Below are positions 5,174-10,018 of a stretch of DNA of 10,018 nt, piece after piece. The DNA is taken from the IMG/VR virus record IMGVR_UViG_2695420596_000012; one strand, written 5' to 3'. Within the stretch, counting starts at the first letter, position 1. Each line of letters starts with the position of its first letter. A program made the position numbers and the translations under genes. This stretch comes from a virus (taxonomy: Duplodnaviria > Heunggongvirae > Uroviricota > Caudoviricetes). The notes beneath the pieces are model-generated. The model had not been told where the DNA came from, ran no database searches, and worked only from the letters and a program-made list of their open reading frames with translations.

Positions 5174-5866
5174 TTAATTGTGTCGCTTAAGGGTTTGTGA
5201 CTGGCTGATTAAGACCTTTCCAAAGACCATAAACCGGTGTTCATTTTCGCTGGTAATTCCCCATTCACGGTAAATCTGGTTATCAGAAATCACCAGTAGT
5301 TTGTCAGGTATCATTTGCAGTCGTTTGACATAAATTTTATCATCAAAACCAAATACATAGATACCATCTCCATCAAACTGATTGATACTGACATCAACGA
5401 AGATGAGATCTCCTGGCTCAATGGTTGGACACATACTGTCCCCACGAACGTTGATAACTTTAATGTGATTGGCTGGCCGTCCGCCAAACATCGATACAGC
5501 ATTATCAGTTCTGTATTCAATGGCATGAATCACATCAATGACATCACCGCCCTGGATAAGGCCATTTCCCGCACTGGCACTGACATCCAGCATTTCAATA
5601 CGGAATACATCCTTCACCTGCGCAACATCCTCACTAATACTGTTTTTACATACAGTATTACTTTTGACGTCTGAGGTAAAGAGATCAGCAATATCAACAC
5701 CTAAGCTCCTGGCAATATTACTCAGGGCTTGTTCAGTGAATTGTTTCTGCTTACCTGTTTCCAGGCGTGAGATATTCGCCGCATCCACTCCTATTGCTTC
5801 AGCGAGATCGGCGATTTTCATGTTCTTCGCCTGGCGAAGTTGTCTGACTCGGTTTCCTATGTTCAT
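5174..5866 (-). CDS. cI: CI-type prophage repressor: N-terminal HTH (XRE type) plus C-terminal LexA-like S24 autopeptidase; 230 aa.
   Basis: HTH segment MKIADLAEAIGVDAANISRLETGKQ. Ala-Gly cleavage site in SASAGNG. Catalytic-Ser motif VRGDSMCPTIEPGD and Lys in YVKRL. Divergent from the Cro-like gene. ATG at 5864-5866 has almost no SD. Confidence 0.9.
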   Translation of the reverse strand: MNIGNRVRQLRQAKNMKIADLAEAIGVDAANISRLETGKQKQFTEQALSNIARSLGVDIADLFTSDVKSNTVCKNSISEDVAQVKDVFRIEMLDVSASAGNGLIQGGDVIDVIHAIEYRTDNAVSMFGGRPANHIKVINVRGDSMCPTIEPGDLIFVDVSINQFDGDGIYVFGFDDKIYVKRLQMIPDKLLVISDNQIYREWGITSENEHRFMVFGKVLISQSQTLKRHN

Positions 5867-5963: not shown

Positions 5964-6224
5964 ATGCAATCACCATTACGGAATGTGCGTAAGGCGCACG
6001 GATTTACTTTGCAGCATGTTGCTGCTGGCGTTCAGGTCAATCCAGCGACGCTGAGTCGTATTGAAAGACTGGAACAAATTCCATCTATCGATCTTGCAGA
6101 ACGTCTGGCCAATTTTTTTAAGGGTGAAATCAGCGAAATGCAGATTCTTTATCCGGCACGTTTTCAATCTAGCCAAAACCAGAATGGGTTTAAACCACAG
6201 GAACAGGAGGTAAGCCGTGGGTAA
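5964..6224 (+). CDS. cro: Cro-like small HTH regulator, 86 aa.
   Basis: HTH segment FTLQHVAAGVQVNPATLSRIERLE. Divergent from cI across the operator region. GGAGG with 4-nt spacer before ATG. Confidence 0.8.
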   Translation: MQSPLRNVRKAHGFTLQHVAAGVQVNPATLSRIERLEQIPSIDLAERLANFFKGEISEMQILYPARFQSSQNQNGFKPQEQEVSRG

Positions 6225-6774
6225 TCATCACTGGAAAGTGGAAAAACAGCCTGAGTGGTACGTGAAAGCTGTCAGAAAAACTATCGCGGCGTTGCCGGAG
6301 GGTTACGCTGAAGCTGCTGAGTGGCTGGATGTAACAGAGAACGCATTATTTAACCGCCTTCGTGCCGATGGCGATCAGATTTTCCCGCTGGGATGGGCAA
6401 TGATTTTACAACGTGCTGGTGGCACTCACTTCATTGCTGACGCTGTGGCGCAGTCTGCAAATGGCGTCTTTGTGTCTCTTCCTGACGTCGAGGATGTGGA
6501 CAATGCCGATATTAACCAGCGTTTACTGGAAGTCATTGAACAGATCGGCAGTTATTCAAAACAGATTCGTTCAGCAATCGAAGACGGTGTAGTGGAACCG
6601 CATGAGAAGACAGCAATTAACGACGAACTGTATCTTTCAATTTCGAAGCTCCAGGAGCATGCAGCACTGGTCTACAAAATCTTCTGCGCTCCAGAAAATA
6701 GTAACGCCCGCGAGTGTGCAGCTCCGGGCGTCGTGGCGTCGATTGCTTCTGGTTGTGGAGAAACTAACGCATGA
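6217..6774 (+). CDS. CII-position early regulatory protein (YdaT/CII-like by position), 185 aa, GTG start; function not established from sequence.
   Basis: GTG 6217 preceded by GGAGG (6206-6210) with 6-nt spacer. Overlaps the cro 3' end by 8 nt. Stop overlaps the next ATG (ATGA at 6771-6774). Confidence 0.6.
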   Translation: MGNHHWKVEKQPEWYVKAVRKTIAALPEGYAEAAEWLDVTENALFNRLRADGDQIFPLGWAMILQRAGGTHFIADAVAQSANGVFVSLPDVEDVDNADINQRLLEVIEQIGSYSKQIRSAIEDGVVEPHEKTAINDELYLSISKLQEHAALVYKIFCAPENSNARECAAPGVVASIASGCGETNA

Positions 6775-7099
6775 ATAGTTTAACGGCAAATAACCGTTTG
6801 TCGCAACAGCTGGTGGTCAGCGTCGCTGAACACCTGTTGTTACGGCATGAATGCAGATTACCAAATCACCTGGCTGTAAGTAACCACAGAGAACTTTACC
6901 TGACTGTGGGGGGCGAGTTGTGCAGGAACTTAACCGCTGGTTTCGTGACGGAAGAGGGCTTTATGTCCATGTTATTCGTTGGGAGCCAGAAACACAGCGC
7001 GTTATCTATCTTCGCAAAGACTACCCGCATGAGTGCTTTAGTCCTTTGTGGAAATTCAGGCGTGATTTTGTTGAGTGTGAAGGACCACCAGCATATTGA
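6771..7099 (+). other. Alternative model: ~109-aa product made from frame 0 (6771-6913) joined to the -1 frame (6914-7099) at a G6 tract; frameshifted gene, programmed -1 slip, or homopolymer sequencing error.
   Basis: Heptamer G GGG GGC (6908-6914) is in X XXY YYZ register for frame 0. The -1 frame opens at 6884 and translates to a protein-like sequence (RVVQELNRWFRDGRGLYVHVIRWEPETQRVIYLRKDYPHECFSPLWKFRRDFVECEGPPAY) ending TGA 7097-7099. Confidence 0.3.
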
Positions 7100-7931
7100 T
7101 TCTGCAATTCCGGGACGTTACACTGCTCAGGCACCTTATAAAGCGGGTGCCGGGATTGGCGTCCTGAAATTGTCAACGGCGATGTATGACGCGCCAGCGT
7201 CTTTTTTATCGTCCGCATTTGCTCACATCCAGATTATGGTGGGCTGGGCGGGGGCACCGAAAGGTGCGCCGGTCTCCGTTGACGCCGGTTACGCCAACCC
7301 CGTCCAGTTCACCACCAGTGAAATTGGCGTTTCCGGTGGTGGAAGTTTTTCACTGTCAACGGAGGCTGCCATCATGGCTACGATCCCAGCCCTCACCCAA
7401 CCTGAAATCACCATTGACAACGGCCAGGCCGTTACCACTTCTTTGGCTGTTGCCAACTTCTTCTCCAAGCGTCACGACGATGTGCTGAAAAAGATCCGCA
7501 CTCTGGATTGTTCCCCAGAGTTTTGTGCCCGCAATTTTGCGGAGACATCGATTTCGGTAAATCAACCGAACGGTGGTACACGCAAGCTCCCTTGCTATCA
7601 AATCACACGAGACGGTTTTGCGTTTCTTGCTATGGGTTTCACGGGTAAACGTGCTGCCCGGTTCAAAGAGGCATACATAAATGCCTTTAACCAGATGGAG
7701 AAACAGCTTTCAAAGCCCGCTGTACCGAGCGACGTTGCACATAACGCCAGCGTTCTCTGTTCCTACATTTCATCAATTCATCAGGTCTGGCTGCAGCAGC
7801 TTTATCCTATGTTGGCAAAAGCCGAATCTCCGCTGGCTGTTAGCTTATATGACTATATTAATGATGCTTCGGCGCTGGCCAGTCTCATAAATTTGTCGCT
7901 GAACCCTTCAGAGGTAAGGGGGCGCAAATGA
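6771..7931 (+). CDS. Long ORF (386 aa) whose C-terminal half is a Rha-family phage regulatory (antirepressor-like) domain; N-terminal ~200 codons are of doubtful structure, and the Rha core probably starts at ATG 7374.
   Basis: Residues from AVTTSLAVANFFSKRHDDVLKKIR to YQITRDGFAFLAMGFTGKRAARFKEAYINAFNQME match the Rha-domain signature from memory. Internal ATG 7374 is preceded by GGAGG (7361-7365). ATG 6771 is coupled to the upstream stop. Frame 0 has no stop between 6771 and 7931. Confidence 0.45.
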   Translation: MNSLTANNRLSQQLVVSVAEHLLLRHECRLPNHLAVSNHRELYLTVGGELCRNLTAGFVTEEGFMSMLFVGSQKHSALSIFAKTTRMSALVLCGNSGVILLSVKDHQHIDSAIPGRYTAQAPYKAGAGIGVLKLSTAMYDAPASFLSSAFAHIQIMVGWAGAPKGAPVSVDAGYANPVQFTTSEIGVSGGGSFSLSTEAAIMATIPALTQPEITIDNGQAVTTSLAVANFFSKRHDDVLKKIRTLDCSPEFCARNFAETSISVNQPNGGTRKLPCYQITRDGFAFLAMGFTGKRAARFKEAYINAFNQMEKQLSKPAVPSDVAHNASVLCSYISSIHQVWLQQLYPMLAKAESPLAVSLYDYINDASALASLINLSLNPSEVRGRK

Positions 7932-8152
7932 TCCGGAATATTTTCAAACGGTTTACCAATCATACTTTCCGTTGTCCTCGTCCGGGTCAGTGGTACACCA
8001 CGCCTGCTGGGCATGTTCTACGTGTTAGCCTGGTTGACCGTGAATGTCAGAAGGTGGTTTGTGAACCGCTGGGCCGTAATTACCGCGTCAGTATGCCGCT
8101 TATAGCCTTTTGCTCCGGAAAAATGTTTAAGCGTCTGGGAGGTGTGGCGTGA
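7928..8152 (+). CDS. Hypothetical small protein, 74 aa, with four Cys (possible small metal-binding fold).
   Basis: ATG 7928 overlaps the upstream stop (ATGA). Cys at CPRPG, RECQKVVC and AFCSG. Confidence 0.45.
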   Translation: MIRNIFKRFTNHTFRCPRPGQWYTTPAGHVLRVSLVDRECQKVVCEPLGRNYRVSMPLIAFCSGKMFKRLGGVA

Positions 8153-8290
8153 ACTGTTTTCAGTTTGTGTGCGGATGTGCTTTCGATAACCCGATTCAGC
8201 GCCTGATTATGTTGCGTGTTTTGATGTCGGGTTCCGGACTACAGCCCACTCCATATCTGATTTAATACACTATCCCGGCCGGGAGGAATA

Positions 8291-10018
8291 ATGACATTTA
8301 AACATTATGATGTTGTCAGGGCGGCGTCGCCGTCAGACCTTGCGGAAAAGCTGACACACAAACTGAAAGAGGGCTGGCAGCCGTTTGGTAGTCCGGTGGC
8401 CATAACCCCTTATACCCTGATGCAGGCGATTACAGCAGAAGGTGATGTGGTGGTCAGTGGTGCAACTGAGCCGGATTGGTACTACGTCATCGTACTGGCC
8501 GGGCAGTCCAATGCCATGGCTTACGGTGAAGGGCTTCCGCTGCCGGATTCATACGATGCTCCGGATCCGCGCATTAAACAGCTGGCGCGCCGCAGTACAG
8601 TTACGCCGGGTGGGGCTGCATGCAGATATAACGATATTATTCCGGCCGACCACTGCCTGCATGATGTGCAGGATATGAGTACGCTGAATCATCCGAAGGC
8701 AGACCTGAGCAAAGGGCAGTACGGCTGTGTCGGCCAGGGCTTACATATTGCCAAAAAACTGCTCCCGTATATCCCGAATAACGCGGGGATCCTGCTGGTA
8801 CCATGCTGTCGTGGTGGTTCGGCATTTACCCAGGGCGCGGAGGGGACATTCAGTGCGGACACGGGGGCCAGCCAGGATTCGGCGCGCTGGGGTGTGGGTA
8901 AACCGTTATATCAGGACCTGATTGCGCGCACCAAAGCTGCATTACAGAAGAACCCGAAAAATGTGTTGCTGGCGGTGTGCTGGATGCAGGGAGAGTTTGA
9001 CATGAGCGCCGCCACCCACGCACAGCAACCTGCGCTGTTTACAGCCATGCTGACACAGTTTCGTGCTGACCTCTCCGTGTTTAACGCGCAGTGCCATGGT
9101 GGCAGTGCTGCAGATGTGCCGTGGATTTGTGGTGACACGACGTATTACTGGAAAAATACCTACGGCACCCAGTACAACACCATTTACGGGGCGTACAAAA
9201 ACAGGGAGAGTGAGGGCGTTTATTTTGTGCCCTTCATGACAGACGGTAACGGCGTCAATACCGCCACTAACGCGCCGGCAGAAGATCCGGATATTCCGGC
9301 ATCAGGATATTACGGTGCGGCATCGAGAACGAATGGAAACCAGGTATCATCAAACCGCCCGACACATTTCAGTTCATGGGCGCGCAGGAGCATTATTCCG
9401 GATCGTCTGGCAACCGCTATTCTGAACGCAGCCGGGCGCACCTCAGCCTTCATCAGTGGTAAGGCACCGGAAATCAAACCCTCGCCCGGCGGCAACACGC
9501 CATCGGGTCCGTCTGCAGATACGTCCGTTCGCACAATCTCCCTGCTGCCGGCAGCCGGAGAGGCTGCTGCGCAGGGCTGGAGCATTAAGGATGGCGGAAT
9601 TCAGTTGTCAGATGGTGTATTTAAGATCACCAAGCAGAGCAATAAAACCTGGTCCCTGACGCATCCGGTGGATGACGCAATTACCCTGCTGACACAGGGC
9701 GGCAGACTGAACTGTAAGTTCCGCCTGTCAGGCGCACTGACCAACAATCAGTTCGGGCTGGGGATTTATCTGTATACGGATGCTCCCGTTCCTGATGGTG
9801 TGGCGATGACGGGTACCGGTAATCCGTTCCTGATGTCGTACTTCACTCAGACCACTGACGGCAGAGTGAATCTGATGCATCACAGGAAAGCCGGAAACAC
9901 GAAGCTGGGGGAGTTCGGCGATTACGGTAACGACTGGCAGACGCTGGAGCTGGTGTTCACCGCCGGCAGTGCCACGGTTACTCCGAAACTGAATGGAGTG
10001 GCTGGCCCGGCATTCCAG
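8291..10018 (+). CDS. Prophage-type sialate O-acetylesterase-like protein (NanS-p-like): N-terminal DUF1737, SASA/SGNH hydrolase domain, C-terminal beta-rich probable carbohydrate-binding region; 3'-truncated by window end (576 codons visible).
   Basis: Hand translation from ATG 8291 (GGAGG at 8282-8286) is open to the last base; absent from the ORF track, presumably because no stop falls in the window. Motifs VLAGQSNAMAYGEG (SGNH block I) and WMQGEFD (SASA W-QGE-D). N-terminus MTFKHYDVV...EGWQPFG resembles DUF1737. Confidence 0.8.
   Translation, partial: MTFKHYDVVRAASPSDLAEKLTHKLKEGWQPFGSPVAITPYTLMQAITAEGDVVVSGATEPDWYYVIVLAGQSNAMAYGEGLPLPDSYDAPDPRIKQLARRSTVTPGGAACRYNDIIPADHCLHDVQDMSTLNHPKADLSKGQYGCVGQGLHIAKKLLPYIPNNAGILLVPCCRGGSAFTQGAEGTFSADTGASQDSARWGVGKPLYQDLIARTKAALQKNPKNVLLAVCWMQGEFDMSAATHAQQPALFTAMLTQFRADLSVFNAQCHGGSAADVPWICGDTTYYWKNTYGTQYNTIYGAYKNRESEGVYFVPFMTDGNGVNTATNAPAEDPDIPASGYYGAASRTNGNQVSSNRPTHFSSWARRSIIPDRLATAILNAAGRTSAFISGKAPEIKPSPGGNTPSGPSADTSVRTISLLPAAGEAAAQGWSIKDGGIQLSDGVFKITKQSNKTWSLTHPVDDAITLLTQGGRLNCKFRLSGALTNNQFGLGIYLYTDAPVPDGVAMTGTGNPFLMSYFTQTTDGRVNLMHHRKAGNTKLGEFGDYGNDWQTLELVFTAGSATVTPKLNGVAGPAFQ

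Follow-up and report, generated by a model that had tools for sequence, protein, structure and literature searches.

Probable overlapping ymfM and DUF4222 genes followed by an RNA switch, rather than a frameshift site, upstream of a phage Rha domain

Described systems and the layout of the locus

Small phage genes can lie nested out of frame within larger ones, as in the lambda Rz/Rz1 pair. In the satellite P4, the timm terminator is Rho-dependent. It was reported that translation of P4 Eta prevents termination and that eta is coupled to the gene upstream of it (PMC10111431). The C4 antisense system of P1 and P7 is credited to Citron and Schuster (1990, as cited in PMC8201110). In Gifsy-1, the intrinsic terminator of isrK was found to be leaky, and orf45, the ORF beyond it, was found to be translated, to be coupled to the antirepressor and to drive its translation, its nucleotide sequence being conserved and its amino-acid sequence not (PMC4825925).

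The window analysed here is a stretch of 10,018 nt from a Caudoviricetes virus (IMG/VR record IMGVR_UViG_2695420596_000012). A preliminary description had drawn attention to a G6 tract between two protein-like frames at 6771–7373. Inspection of the sequence bore out the layout it gave. Frame 0 runs from ATG 6771 to TGA 7929–7931 with no earlier stop (386 codons), the -1 frame has no stop between 6884 and TGA 7097–7099, and the tract, at 6908–6913, stands in the frame-0 register G GGG GGC (6908–6914). The Rha domain lies in the C-terminal half of the 386-aa ORF (aa 222–311 by Pfam) and has its own start, ATG 7374, with GGAGG upstream at 7361–7365. The description had doubted that this ORF is one simple gene, and the ORF was indeed found to be a composite that includes YmfM-like, RNA-module and Rha parts. 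The protein-coding features are as follows.

6217–6774, + strand: ymfL / CII-like gene (Pfam PF06892 Phage_CP76, E = 6.6e-13; PGAP name YmfL)
6771–7931, + strand: composite frame-0 ORF of 386 codons (YmfM-like N-terminus, DUF4222 overlap, 'Ash' stretch, Rha domain)
6771–6919, + strand: YmfM-like N-terminal part of frame 0 (~50 codons) before the start of the nested gene
6908–6913, + strand: G6 tract, 6 nt before GTG 6920; predicted Shine-Dalgarno (SD) element for DUF4222
6920–7099, + strand: DUF4222 gene of 59 aa, starting at GTG and lying within frame 0 in the -1 reading frame (Pfam PF13973)
7374–7931, + strand: Rha-family antirepressor, short form of 185 aa, in phase within frame 0 (PF09669, E = 8e-28)
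7928–8152, + strand: downstream gene of 74 aa, 54% identical to the gene after DUF4222 in locus L093

It is probable that 6771–7373 comprises two overlapping genes and then an RNA switch, with one open frame through all of them, and is not a frameshift site. The first part has a close counterpart in ymfL-ymfM of e14, which has the same gene order, the same ATGA coupling (in the window the ymfL TGA overlaps the frame-0 ATG at 6771–6774) and a nested 59-aa DUF4222 ORF that the ymfM frame overlaps in +1 phase. In contrast to the window, e14 has no isrK-C4-Rha module; the stop codon of its ymfM precedes that of DUF4222 by 20 nt and the replication gene by 9 nt. The N-terminal segment of e14 ymfM is also of another sequence type, with 10 more codons than in the window. 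The lambda Rz/Rz1 pair resembles the window in that one ORF wholly encloses a small gene of another frame that has a start and SD of its own. The outer frame of the window differs, however, in that it avoids stops without amino-acid constraint in the overlap, which suggests selection for ribosome passage and not for two folded products.

The nested DUF4222 gene and the G6 tract

The preliminary description had judged the -1 frame to be convincingly protein-like, and it proved to be coding. Its product scored 50.4 bits on the DUF4222 profile (PF13973; cut-off 27, E = 1.6e-13) and also matched phrog_1343 (E = 1.9e-36). The protein was conserved at 61–98% identity in at least 12 enterobacterial genera, always with its own start codon, and its homologues fell into 33 clusters, mostly of 59 aa. 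Stand-alone 59-aa forms starting with ATG, GTG or TTG were found in E. coli, Salmonella, Citrobacter, Kosakonia and other genera. Changes at the three codon positions of the DUF4222 frame numbered 22/12/62, the third positions being the variable ones. In the overlap, 21 synonymous and 15 nonsynonymous variants were counted in the DUF4222 frame versus 5 and 31 in frame 0. On these sequence comparisons, the DUF4222 frame was judged to be under purifying selection. The AlphaFold2 model of the protein was a predicted beta-barrel with a pLDDT of 85.5. NCBIfam held no model for DUF4222 or for the YmfM frame, and in searches of the open-access literature no study of DUF4222 function and no mention of an ORF overlapping ymfM came to light.

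A single G6/C6 run was present in the window, compared with 2.46 ± 1.99 expected from dinucleotide-preserving shuffles, and the tract itself is statistically not unusual. What exceeds chance is the protein-like -1 frame together with the long open frame 0. The duplex of the tract with the anti-SD sequence was calculated to be -9.7 kcal/mol, close to that of the Rha site (-9.5) and within the top 3% of local 18-nt windows (background -2.7 ± 2.9). Comparable purine-rich elements were found upstream of DUF4222 in all 26 distinct regions examined, with a mean duplex energy of -9.1 kcal/mol. The 59-aa protein would thus be made from its own GTG at 6920, with the G6 tract as its SD element. In some relatives, the spacing between the SD and the DUF4222 start is long (11–12 nt). 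As first posed, the finding of a G run is ordinary: it is a probable ribosome-binding site and gives no hint of recoding.

The length of the tract in homologues was surveyed in a viral-contig scan of close relatives, which are 95–98% identical in the matched DUF4222 protein and were not used for the selection tests. G6 was the normal state, occurring in ~82 of the 86, finished phage genomes included. The question raised earlier, whether homologues carry G5, G6 or G7, was therefore answered in favour of G6 as the usual length, with one G5 and one G7 departing from it. Together with an adjacent 1-nt deletion, these made up 3/86 rare variants. The length variants break the frame-0 chain and leave DUF4222 unaffected; they mean either that some prophages can do without that chain or that these assemblies contain errors.

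Two of the explanations offered in the preliminary description are addressed by this survey. One is that G6 is a sequencing or assembly error, or that it marks an inactivated gene whose intact form has G7 or G5. Homopolymers are error-prone, and the three variants just described do occur. Nevertheless, the ~82 relatives with G6 were assembled independently, and with G6 both frames are intact and match distant relatives (offset 2 mod 3, frame 0 open), whereas the length variants disrupt the frame-0 chain and not DUF4222. Slipped-strand inactivation is also at odds with the independent start of DUF4222 at GTG 6920 and with the stand-alone protein of many genera. We regard error or inactivation as extremely unlikely. 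The other is a slipped-strand contingency locus whose output would alternate among read-through ORF, fusion protein and truncated product. It would be in keeping with the one-base differences in or beside the tract in 3/86 close relatives, whose consequences for the frames differ. But G6 is short for efficient slippage, relatives with the same gene arrangement carry GGGGGA or non-G sequence, the variants are rare singletons in draft assemblies, and an SD element is a simpler role for the tract. Phase variation by slippage is considered very unlikely.

A programmed -1 frameshift at G GGG GGC, which would fuse 47 N-terminal codons to the DUF4222 frame in a protein of ~109 aa, was also weighed. 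Relative to frame 0 the tract has the X XXY YYZ register, the -1 frame is open from 6884, DUF4222 is always -1 relative to the upstream ORF, and the G7 variant L007 encodes exactly the 109-aa fusion. The slippery heptamer was nevertheless not conserved, being confined to a close E. coli group. ST64B and C. braakii carry GGGGGAT, and between it and the GTG the DUF4222 frame contains a TGA; a -1 slip there would end immediately and give no fusion. In L123, L127, L097 and ST64B, the -1 frame opens only 0–3 nt before the DUF4222 start, while e14 and sequence types B and D show neither a G run nor a slippery heptamer where the frames meet. Distant relatives keep the relative phase of the two frames without any G run, which speaks against both programmed and phase-variable frameshifting at the tract. 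All loci have a GTG, ATG or TTG start and an SD-like element for DUF4222, and no stimulatory structure was identified. To our knowledge, G GGG GGC is not an efficient slippery sequence in bacteria. On balance these observations do not support programmed frameshifting at 6771–7373, the probability of which appears negligible.

A structured RNA or boxB-like hairpin in 6775–6919 was considered as well and set aside, because the frame-0 dN/dS of other sequence types explains the conservation better. Conserved nucleotide blocks had suggested it, as had a CCACAG/CTGTGG pairing that might occlude the G tract.

The ymfM frame and the e14 division inhibitor

Frame 0 of the window is the homologue of e14 ymfM; its aa 1–112 were 33% identical to e14 YmfM and matched phrog_1170 (E = 1.6e-10). 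The preliminary description had envisaged that homologues might show a single conserved protein in frame 0 and no similarity in the -1 frame; instead, both frames were found to be conserved as an overlapping pair. Diverged loci were taken from protein look-ups and a species-level genome scan, and the coupled ATG was conserved in 34 of the 37 such loci listed. The overlap of frame 0 with DUF4222 was found in every relative, and the spacing of the coupled ATG and the DUF4222 start was always 2 mod 3 (143, 149, 167, 176 or 179 nt).

Over the first 52 codons of DUF4222, frame 0 was stop-free in 35/35 distinct genes, the chance of which is 0.02–0.15 per gene under a codon-usage null. The third frame, unlike frame 0, carried 2–6 stops per gene. 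Leu, Val and Ile codons standing before a purine-starting codon ended in A or G in none of 160 cases, versus 56 of 161 before pyrimidines (p = 8e-20; the counts come from related sequences, so that p-values overstate independence). As a control, the corresponding codons in the neighbouring ymfL genes ended in A or G in 214/424. In loci without the RNA module (n = 31), the frame-0 stop was always built on an NTA codon; it was located at DUF4222 codon 53 or the aligned equivalent in 30 of them and 9 nt before the ATG of the next long ORF in 28. This usual end of YmfM (~20 nt before the DUF4222 stop, giving 108–115 aa) is absent in the window, ST64B and L097, and in the window frame 0 reads on past it to 7931. 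The AlphaFold2 model of the 386-aa product, made with no alignment supplied, had a pLDDT of 33 throughout, the Rha domain included, and so gives no guide to the segments that fold.

It might be argued that frame 0 upstream of 7374 is untranslated, only ymfL, DUF4222, two RNAs and the 185-aa Rha being real, and that the 386-codon ORF, e14 ymfM and the Pfam Ash domain are artefacts of a frame that is stop-free by chance. The amino acids of frame 0 are indeed unconstrained in the overlap, and within the window's own sequence type the N-terminal 50 codons showed no clear coding signature. Against this, stop avoidance was specific to frame 0 (0/160 compared with ~50% in the control genes), and the stop position was fixed, on rare NTA codons. 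Moreover, all indels in the YmfM-like segment among diverged loci were multiples of 3, and in three other sequence types the N-terminal part of frame 0 had a dN/dS of 0.24–0.40, the other frames being at ~1. That frame 0 is untranslated is regarded as unlikely, and so is the joint claim that all three annotations are artefacts; further evidence on both sides comes from the RNA module below.

From the stop avoidance and the precedents in P4 and Gifsy-1, we infer that frame 0 is probably translated straight across the nested gene. Selection would keep the frame stop-free but leave its amino acids in the overlap free, and the role of frame 0 there appears to be ribosome passage or a sequence-tolerant tail. 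The open frame may keep the early-right operon translationally coupled from ymfL, at the stop of which frame 0 starts at ATG 6771, across the nested gene to the next gene.

This arrangement bears on the division inhibitor of e14. The published pBAD-ymfM clone includes DUF4222 codons 1–53 with their own SD and TTG start, and the ymfM deletion removes both ymfM and DUF4222, so that the existing experiments do not separate the two. The published inhibitor "YmfM" cannot at present be distinguished from the nested DUF4222 protein, and this lead is new. The 40-year-old SfiC phenotype is credited to a gene that overlaps a small protein which is better conserved and unstudied. We tentatively raise the possibility, which we consider the less probable one, that the ymfM frame is open mainly for ribosome passage and that DUF4222, instead of or besides the 112-aa YmfM, is the SOS-inducible SfiC.

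The RNA module and the Rha gene

Downstream of DUF4222, the following features were assigned.

7097–7125, + strand: putative internal sigma-70-type promoter (-35 TTGATT 7097–7102, 17-nt spacer, -10 TACACT 7120–7125)
7131–7207, + strand: isrK-like RNA, equivalent to P4 seqA and P1 a1/b1 (Rfam RF01394, 62.2 bits, gathering score 50)
7156–7162 and 7172–7179, + strand: putative C4 targets a1 and b1 within the isrK-like RNA, by complementarity to C4
7188–7207, + strand: intrinsic terminator of the isrK-like RNA (stem 7188–7201 plus T6), from a terminator scan
7232–7319, + strand: C4-type antisense RNA, equivalent to P4 CI (Rfam RF01695, 81.4 bits, gathering score 45, E = 3e-15)
7274–7283, + strand: C4 loop b', CUCCGUUGAC
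7291–7297, + strand: C4 segment a', ACGCCAA
7324–7365, + strand: putative downstream C4 targets a2 (7324–7330) and b2 (7355–7364), with perfect 7-nt and 10-nt complementarity

The -35 element of the putative promoter overlaps the DUF4222 stop codon. The promoter was recognised from its conserved position only: a -35/-10 pair occurred at the same position before isrK in 14/14 loci, near consensus in several, and the stretch 7097–7125 was invariant in five phages. A consensus promoter scan of 6771–7400 found none, missing this candidate because it has only 8/12 consensus matches. The isrK-like RNA gave in addition a weak match to RF03163. C4 loops and targets covaried across 13 phages, the region 7100–7400 had a fold z of -6.96, and target b2 covers the Rha SD GGAGG (7361–7365).

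It was found that the Pfam Phage_ASH match of the window (aa 117–212, E = 3.7e-21) is the translation of this module; a Pfam "protein" family thus coincides with two structured RNA genes. In the module-free locus L093, the homologue of the 74-aa gene stands directly after DUF4222, so that 7097–7927 stands out as an inserted module. The phage lineage has acquired a P1/P4-type immunity module directly after DUF4222. The long frame through the module was open and in phase with the downstream ATG in 8/8 'embedded' loci (the window and 7 others) and in 0/6 loci of P1, P27, phiV10 or APSE-2 type, and represents a distinct architecture.

For the possibility that frame 0 is untranslated, these results cut both ways. 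The coincidence of the Ash domain with RNA genes, and the intergenic position of the same module in the P1, P27, phiV10 and APSE-2 type loci, would be in line with it. The clean split of the architectures (8/8 versus 0/6) and the reports of translated equivalents, P4 Eta (PMC10111431) and Gifsy-1 orf45 (PMC4825925), argue for translation.

The likeness to P4 eta/kil is close. There, too, an internal promoter, an isrK/seqA-like RNA and a C4/CI RNA all lie within a long ORF that is coupled to the gene before it, and a shorter gene nested in the same phase begins at an 'EAAIMAT' junction. The P4 ORF at 8168–8812 (- strand) spans both RNAs in phase with Kil, and Eta aa 37–161 match Pfam Ash (E = 4.5e-23). 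The nested gene of P4, however, encodes the 65-aa Kil and that of the window a 185-aa Rha-family antirepressor; P4 is a satellite, whereas the window module sits in the early-right operon of a lambdoid prophage. The long ORF of the window, unlike that of P4, begins as a ymfM homologue overlapping another gene, and its first RNA ends in an intrinsic terminator, unlike P4 timm. As in immI of P1/P7 (c4, a1/b1, a2/b2, icd, ant), the C4 segments are complementary to an upstream and a downstream target pair, the latter lying over the ribosome-binding site of the gene that leads to the antirepressor, and C4 specificity covaries between phages. In contrast to P1/P7, the window has no separate icd and the regulated start codon would be Rha's own; in P1-like RCS47, stop codons separate C4 from the ATG and the module is intergenic. 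Gifsy-1 isrK-orf45-anrP shares with the window an isrK with its own promoter and an intrinsic terminator, followed by an ORF across a C4-like stretch. The window AUG equivalent to the orf45 start is at 7236 in frame 0, and no SD was found before it (anti-SD duplex +0.4 kcal/mol). Whereas orf45 ends in an AUGA overlap with anrP, the window frame joins Rha in phase and stays open a long way upstream too.

By analogy with P4 eta/kil and Gifsy-1 isrK-orf45-anrP, the module may work as a switch between lysogeny and induction. In the lysogen, only the internal promoter would fire, short RNAs would accumulate, and C4 would keep Rha from being translated at ATG 7374. Once the phage is induced, ribosomes on early-right transcripts would read frame 0 across the terminator and the C4 targets, and this translation would suppress termination and antisense control, allowing expression of the Rha-domain protein and the downstream replication genes. 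The P4 eta design, in which a translated frame passes through an antisense-RNA immunity switch, would then extend to lambdoid prophages, where it precedes Rha antirepressors.

Public annotation of such loci was inconsistent in three ways, giving a 383–386-aa "Rha", DUF4222 plus a shorter antirepressor, or ymfM alone. The Rha product of the window also matched TIGR02681, and its stop overlaps the next ATG as ATGA. The 'EAAIMAT' junction was common to the window Rha, P4 Kil, and Icd-like and Ash proteins.

Layout of the locus

The window comes from a lambdoid prophage of E. coli (the e14 / SfV / mEp460 / ST64B kind), of which it makes up the immunity and early-right region. The genes stand in the following order.

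5174-5866, minus strand: cI-like repressor gene
5964-6224: cro-like HTH gene
6217-6774: YmfL, CII-like (Pfam PF06892)
ATG 6771 to TGA 7929-7931: 386-codon ORF (frame 0)
7928-8152: 74-aa gene

As stated in the preliminary description, frame 0 was stop-free for 386 codons from ATG 6771 until TGA 7929-7931, a G6 tract was located at 6908-6913 in the register G GGG GGC of this frame, and the Rha start (ATG 7374) was preceded by GGAGG. The -1 frame was likewise open from 6884 to TGA 7097-7099, with a translation ending in VVQELNRWFRDGRGLYVHVIRWEPETQRVIYLRKDYPHECFSPLWKFRRDFVECEGPPAY. A G6 run as such was not unusual (one observed on both strands versus 2.46 ± 1.99 expected). The annotation of the 386-codon ORF was found to be inconsistent between public records. 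One Rha or antirepressor protein of 383-385 aa was annotated in mEp460, Stx2a_1447, ST64B and by PGAP; a 59-aa -1-frame protein plus a shorter protein was annotated in phage 1720a-02, and by PGAP for SfV-like prophages. At 1182-1254, weak sub-threshold Rfam matches (rnk leader, RNAI, P9, sroH) were stacked on AAAACCCGCCTTTAGGCGGGTTTTTT, which looks like a strong intrinsic terminator and not like a member of any of these four families.

The DUF4222 gene and the G tract

The -1 frame is a genuine independent gene. Its product matched Pfam DUF4222 with 50.4 bits (cut-off 27, E = 1.6e-13) as well as phrog_1343, and changes fell mostly at third codon positions (22/12/62 by position; 21 synonymous versus 15 nonsynonymous variants among close relatives), bearing out its suspected coding nature. 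By protein search, 33 homologue clusters were obtained from E. coli, Salmonella, Citrobacter and Kosakonia at identities down to 63%. Most were exactly 59 aa long and named "DUF4222 domain-containing protein", and all started with M(Q/R/Y)xLNRWF. When one genome was scanned for each species, 32 further loci came up, in Raoultella, Kluyvera, Enterobacter, Phytobacter, Atlantibacter, Buttiauxella, Silvania and others.

Within the open stretch of the -1 frame, GTG 6920 is the sole start codon; it was aligned with the ATG, GTG or TTG starts of all homologues and lies 6 nt downstream of the end of the G6 tract. The predicted duplex of the tract with the 3' end of 16S rRNA was -9.7 kcal/mol, equal to that of the Rha site (-9.5) and within the top 3% among 18-nt windows of the surrounding 2.2 kb. 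Over 26 distinct regions 5' of DUF4222 starts the mean was -9.1, against a background of -2.7 ± 2.9, and relatives carry GGGGGA, GGGAG, GGAGGG or AAGGAG at the position of the tract. In the stretch 6775-6919, nucleotide blocks (GTTTAACGG...CCGTT, GTAACCACAG and GTGGGGG) are kept across genera, and CCACAG may pair with CTGTGG, which would sequester the G-tract Shine-Dalgarno (SD) sequence and hints at an extra RNA-level control of DUF4222 translation.

Ribosomal slippage, a homopolymer error, an inactivating frameshift or a phase-variable switch at the tract had earlier been named as possibilities. Comparison of 86 close loci gave about 82 with G6, one with G7, one with G5 and one lacking a base between tract and GTG. 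The foreseen 109-aa fusion of the N-terminus to DUF4222 is indeed encoded by the G7 record (L007, IMGVR_UViG_2526164601_000020, 33-362). Frame 0 was truncated at 53 codons in the G5 locus (L034) and in the one with a 1-nt deletion 3' of the tract (L014), and DUF4222 was intact in all three; these length variants may be real alleles or homopolymer errors. Fusion by a -1 slip was excluded in ST64B and C. braakii, because GGGGGAT puts a TGA of the DUF4222 frame between tract and GTG, and in the related loci L123 and L127, because that frame opens merely 0-3 nt 5' of the start. Both frames were kept without a G run in e14 and two further sequence types. With a separate DUF4222 start, G6 as the usual state and stops or no G run elsewhere, the sequence comparison gave no support to programmed frameshifting, and tract-length error and phase variation were likewise rejected.

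Frame 0 as a ymfM homologue kept open

Frame 0 is homologous to e14 ymfM, and at every locus it overlaps DUF4222. In K-12 (NC_000913.3), ymfM is b1148, a 112-aa "cell division inhibitor YmfM" starting from an ATGA overlap with ymfL; in PGAP K-12 assemblies the nested 59-aa DUF4222 ORF is annotated in its place (e14 loci L095 3055-3413 and L136 2823-3161). PHROGs contains both, as phrog_1170 (YmfM) and phrog_1343 (DUF4222). The first frame-0 ATG overlapped the ymfL stop in GCATGA/GCATGG context in 34 of 37 diverged loci; in L090, L100 and L116 it was another ATG, or none was recognised. The coupled ATG and the DUF4222 start lay 143, 149, 167, 176 or 179 nt apart, in each case 2 mod 3. Frame 0 of the diverged loci had 108-115 codons or continued into the RNA module (isrK-like RNA and C4 RNA), except for 86-102 codons in three with an internal first ATG.

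No frame-0 stop was found within the first 52 DUF4222 codons in any of 35 distinct genes, versus 2-6 per gene in the third frame; by resampling of synonymous codons, the probability of no stop in frame 0 was 0.02-0.15 per gene. Leu/Val/Ile codons were NTA or NTG in 0/160 cases before a purine-starting codon versus 56/161 before a pyrimidine (p = 8e-20; such p-values are upper bounds on significance because the compared sequences are related). In the adjacent ymfL genes, used as control, 214/424 were NTA or NTG, with 1.85 stops per 52 codons in that phase. Alignment columns alternated between NTT and NTC, and NTA or NTG was seen only where the next codon begins with C; the pattern therefore arose repeatedly.

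The position of the stop was also constrained. In all 31 module-free loci (among L087-L128), the frame-0 stop was built on an NTA codon (ATA, TTA or CTA; GTA in L093), which places it at nt 157-163 of DUF4222 (nt 196 in L093). In 30 of them this NTA codon was DUF4222 codon 53 or the one aligned with it, and in 28 the stop preceded the replication gene's ATG by 9 nt, within that gene's SD (TAGAGG..., TAAAGGA...).

5' of DUF4222, frame-0 dN/dS was 0.24, 0.40 and 0.33 in three sequence types, versus 0.59-1.5 in the other two frames (about 1 or above in five of six comparisons); in the window's own type, the 15 synonymous and 27 nonsynonymous changes (codon positions 10/19/13) gave no clear coding signal. 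Within the overlap, frame 0 had 5 synonymous versus 31 nonsynonymous changes, indicating that its amino acids are unconstrained. Together with stop avoidance, this argues that frame 0 is kept open by selection on openness and stop position, not on the peptide. Selection would favour ribosome passage, which would couple translation of ymfL with that of the next gene and protect against polarity; a tail tolerant of sequence change is a possible alternative.

The searchable literature yielded neither the ymfM/DUF4222 overlap nor evidence for selection on the openness of the ymfM frame rather than on its sequence. The SfiC phenotype, division inhibition by e14, has been attributed to ymfM by Ansari et al. 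(bioRxiv 10.1101/2020.11.19.390815). Owing to the overlap, the DNA behind this assignment also contains codons 1-53 of DUF4222, complete with an SD and start codon of their own, and the published clone would express these residues too. Whether ymfM or DUF4222 causes the phenotype is a testable lead of moderate interest.

The RNA switch within the long frame

Between DUF4222 and Rha, the following RNA elements were located.

7097-7125: putative internal promoter, TTGATT-17-TACACT (-35/-10), just 5' of isrK
7131-7207: isrK RNA (Rfam, 62.2 bits, gathering score 50)
7188-7201: stem, followed by T6, of the intrinsic terminator of the isrK part
7232-7319: C4 antisense RNA (Rfam, 81.4 bits, gathering score 45)
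7274-7283: C4 loop CUCCGUUGAC (b'), pairing with b1 (7172-7179) and b2 (7355-7364)
7291-7297: C4 segment ACGCCAA (a'), pairing with a1 (7156-7162) and a2 (7324-7330)

The b2 target covers the Rha SD. The C4 segments and their four targets varied between 13 phages and always matched within each phage. At least five a' sequences were found and b' differed at almost every locus examined, which points to a large number of immunity specificities in Stx, SfV-like, P1-like, APSE and Hafnia phages. The -35/-10 pair was at the same position in 14/14 loci compared and near consensus in several, and the fold z-score of 7100-7400 was -6.96. In module-free relatives DUF4222 is directly followed by the 74-aa gene or the replication gene; 7097-7927 is therefore an inserted module.

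Both isrK and C4 lay within a frame that shares the phase of the downstream ATG in all eight loci of the embedded kind (the window, 1720a-02, Stx2a_1447, ST64B, an SfV-like locus, C. braakii, Hafnia phage yong2 and an Icd-like island), versus none of six with intergenic RNAs (a P1-like phage, P27, phiV10, APSE-2, Stx2a_F765 and a Yersinia phage). Similarly, in P4 an ORF at 8168-8812(-) covers isrK (seqA) and C4 (CI), shares its phase with the 65-aa Kil and carries an Ash domain; its Kil start reads "EAAIMATT", and the window junction "EAAIMATI". It was reported that the P4 transcript from the internal promoter is terminated via CI/seqA interaction, yielding CI, and that Eta, whose translation prevents termination, is coupled to the gene before it and translated only on transcripts of the upstream promoter (PMC10111431). 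Gifsy-1 has a translated ORF (orf45) downstream of IsrK that is coupled to the antirepressor gene anrP and conserved in nucleotide but not in amino-acid sequence (PMC4825925); its AUG corresponds to 7236 in the window, which lies in frame 0. Known precedents exist for the RNA switch, for the P4-type enclosing ORF and for genes nested out of frame.

From the observed module parts and their conservation, a working may be proposed. In the lysogen, the early promoter would be off, and the internal promoter would give the isrK-like RNA and, via read-through, C4, which would occlude the Rha SD. Upon loss of repressor, ribosomes on early transcripts would pass from ymfL into frame 0 and translate on over DUF4222, the terminator and the C4 targets. 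Such translation would cause terminator read-through, give the Rha-domain protein independently of the blocked SD and couple into downstream genes via ATGA at 7928; DUF4222 would be made in parallel from its own start.

The Pfam Phage_ASH match of frame 0 (aa 117-212, nt 7119-7406) falls on the DNA of the RNA module. PF10554 coincided with translated isrK/seqA and C4/CI RNA genes in every case examined (window 7119-7406; P4, L137, 8168-8812(-); the related loci L094 and L096), and this 'protein domain' may largely be a reflection of RNA conservation.
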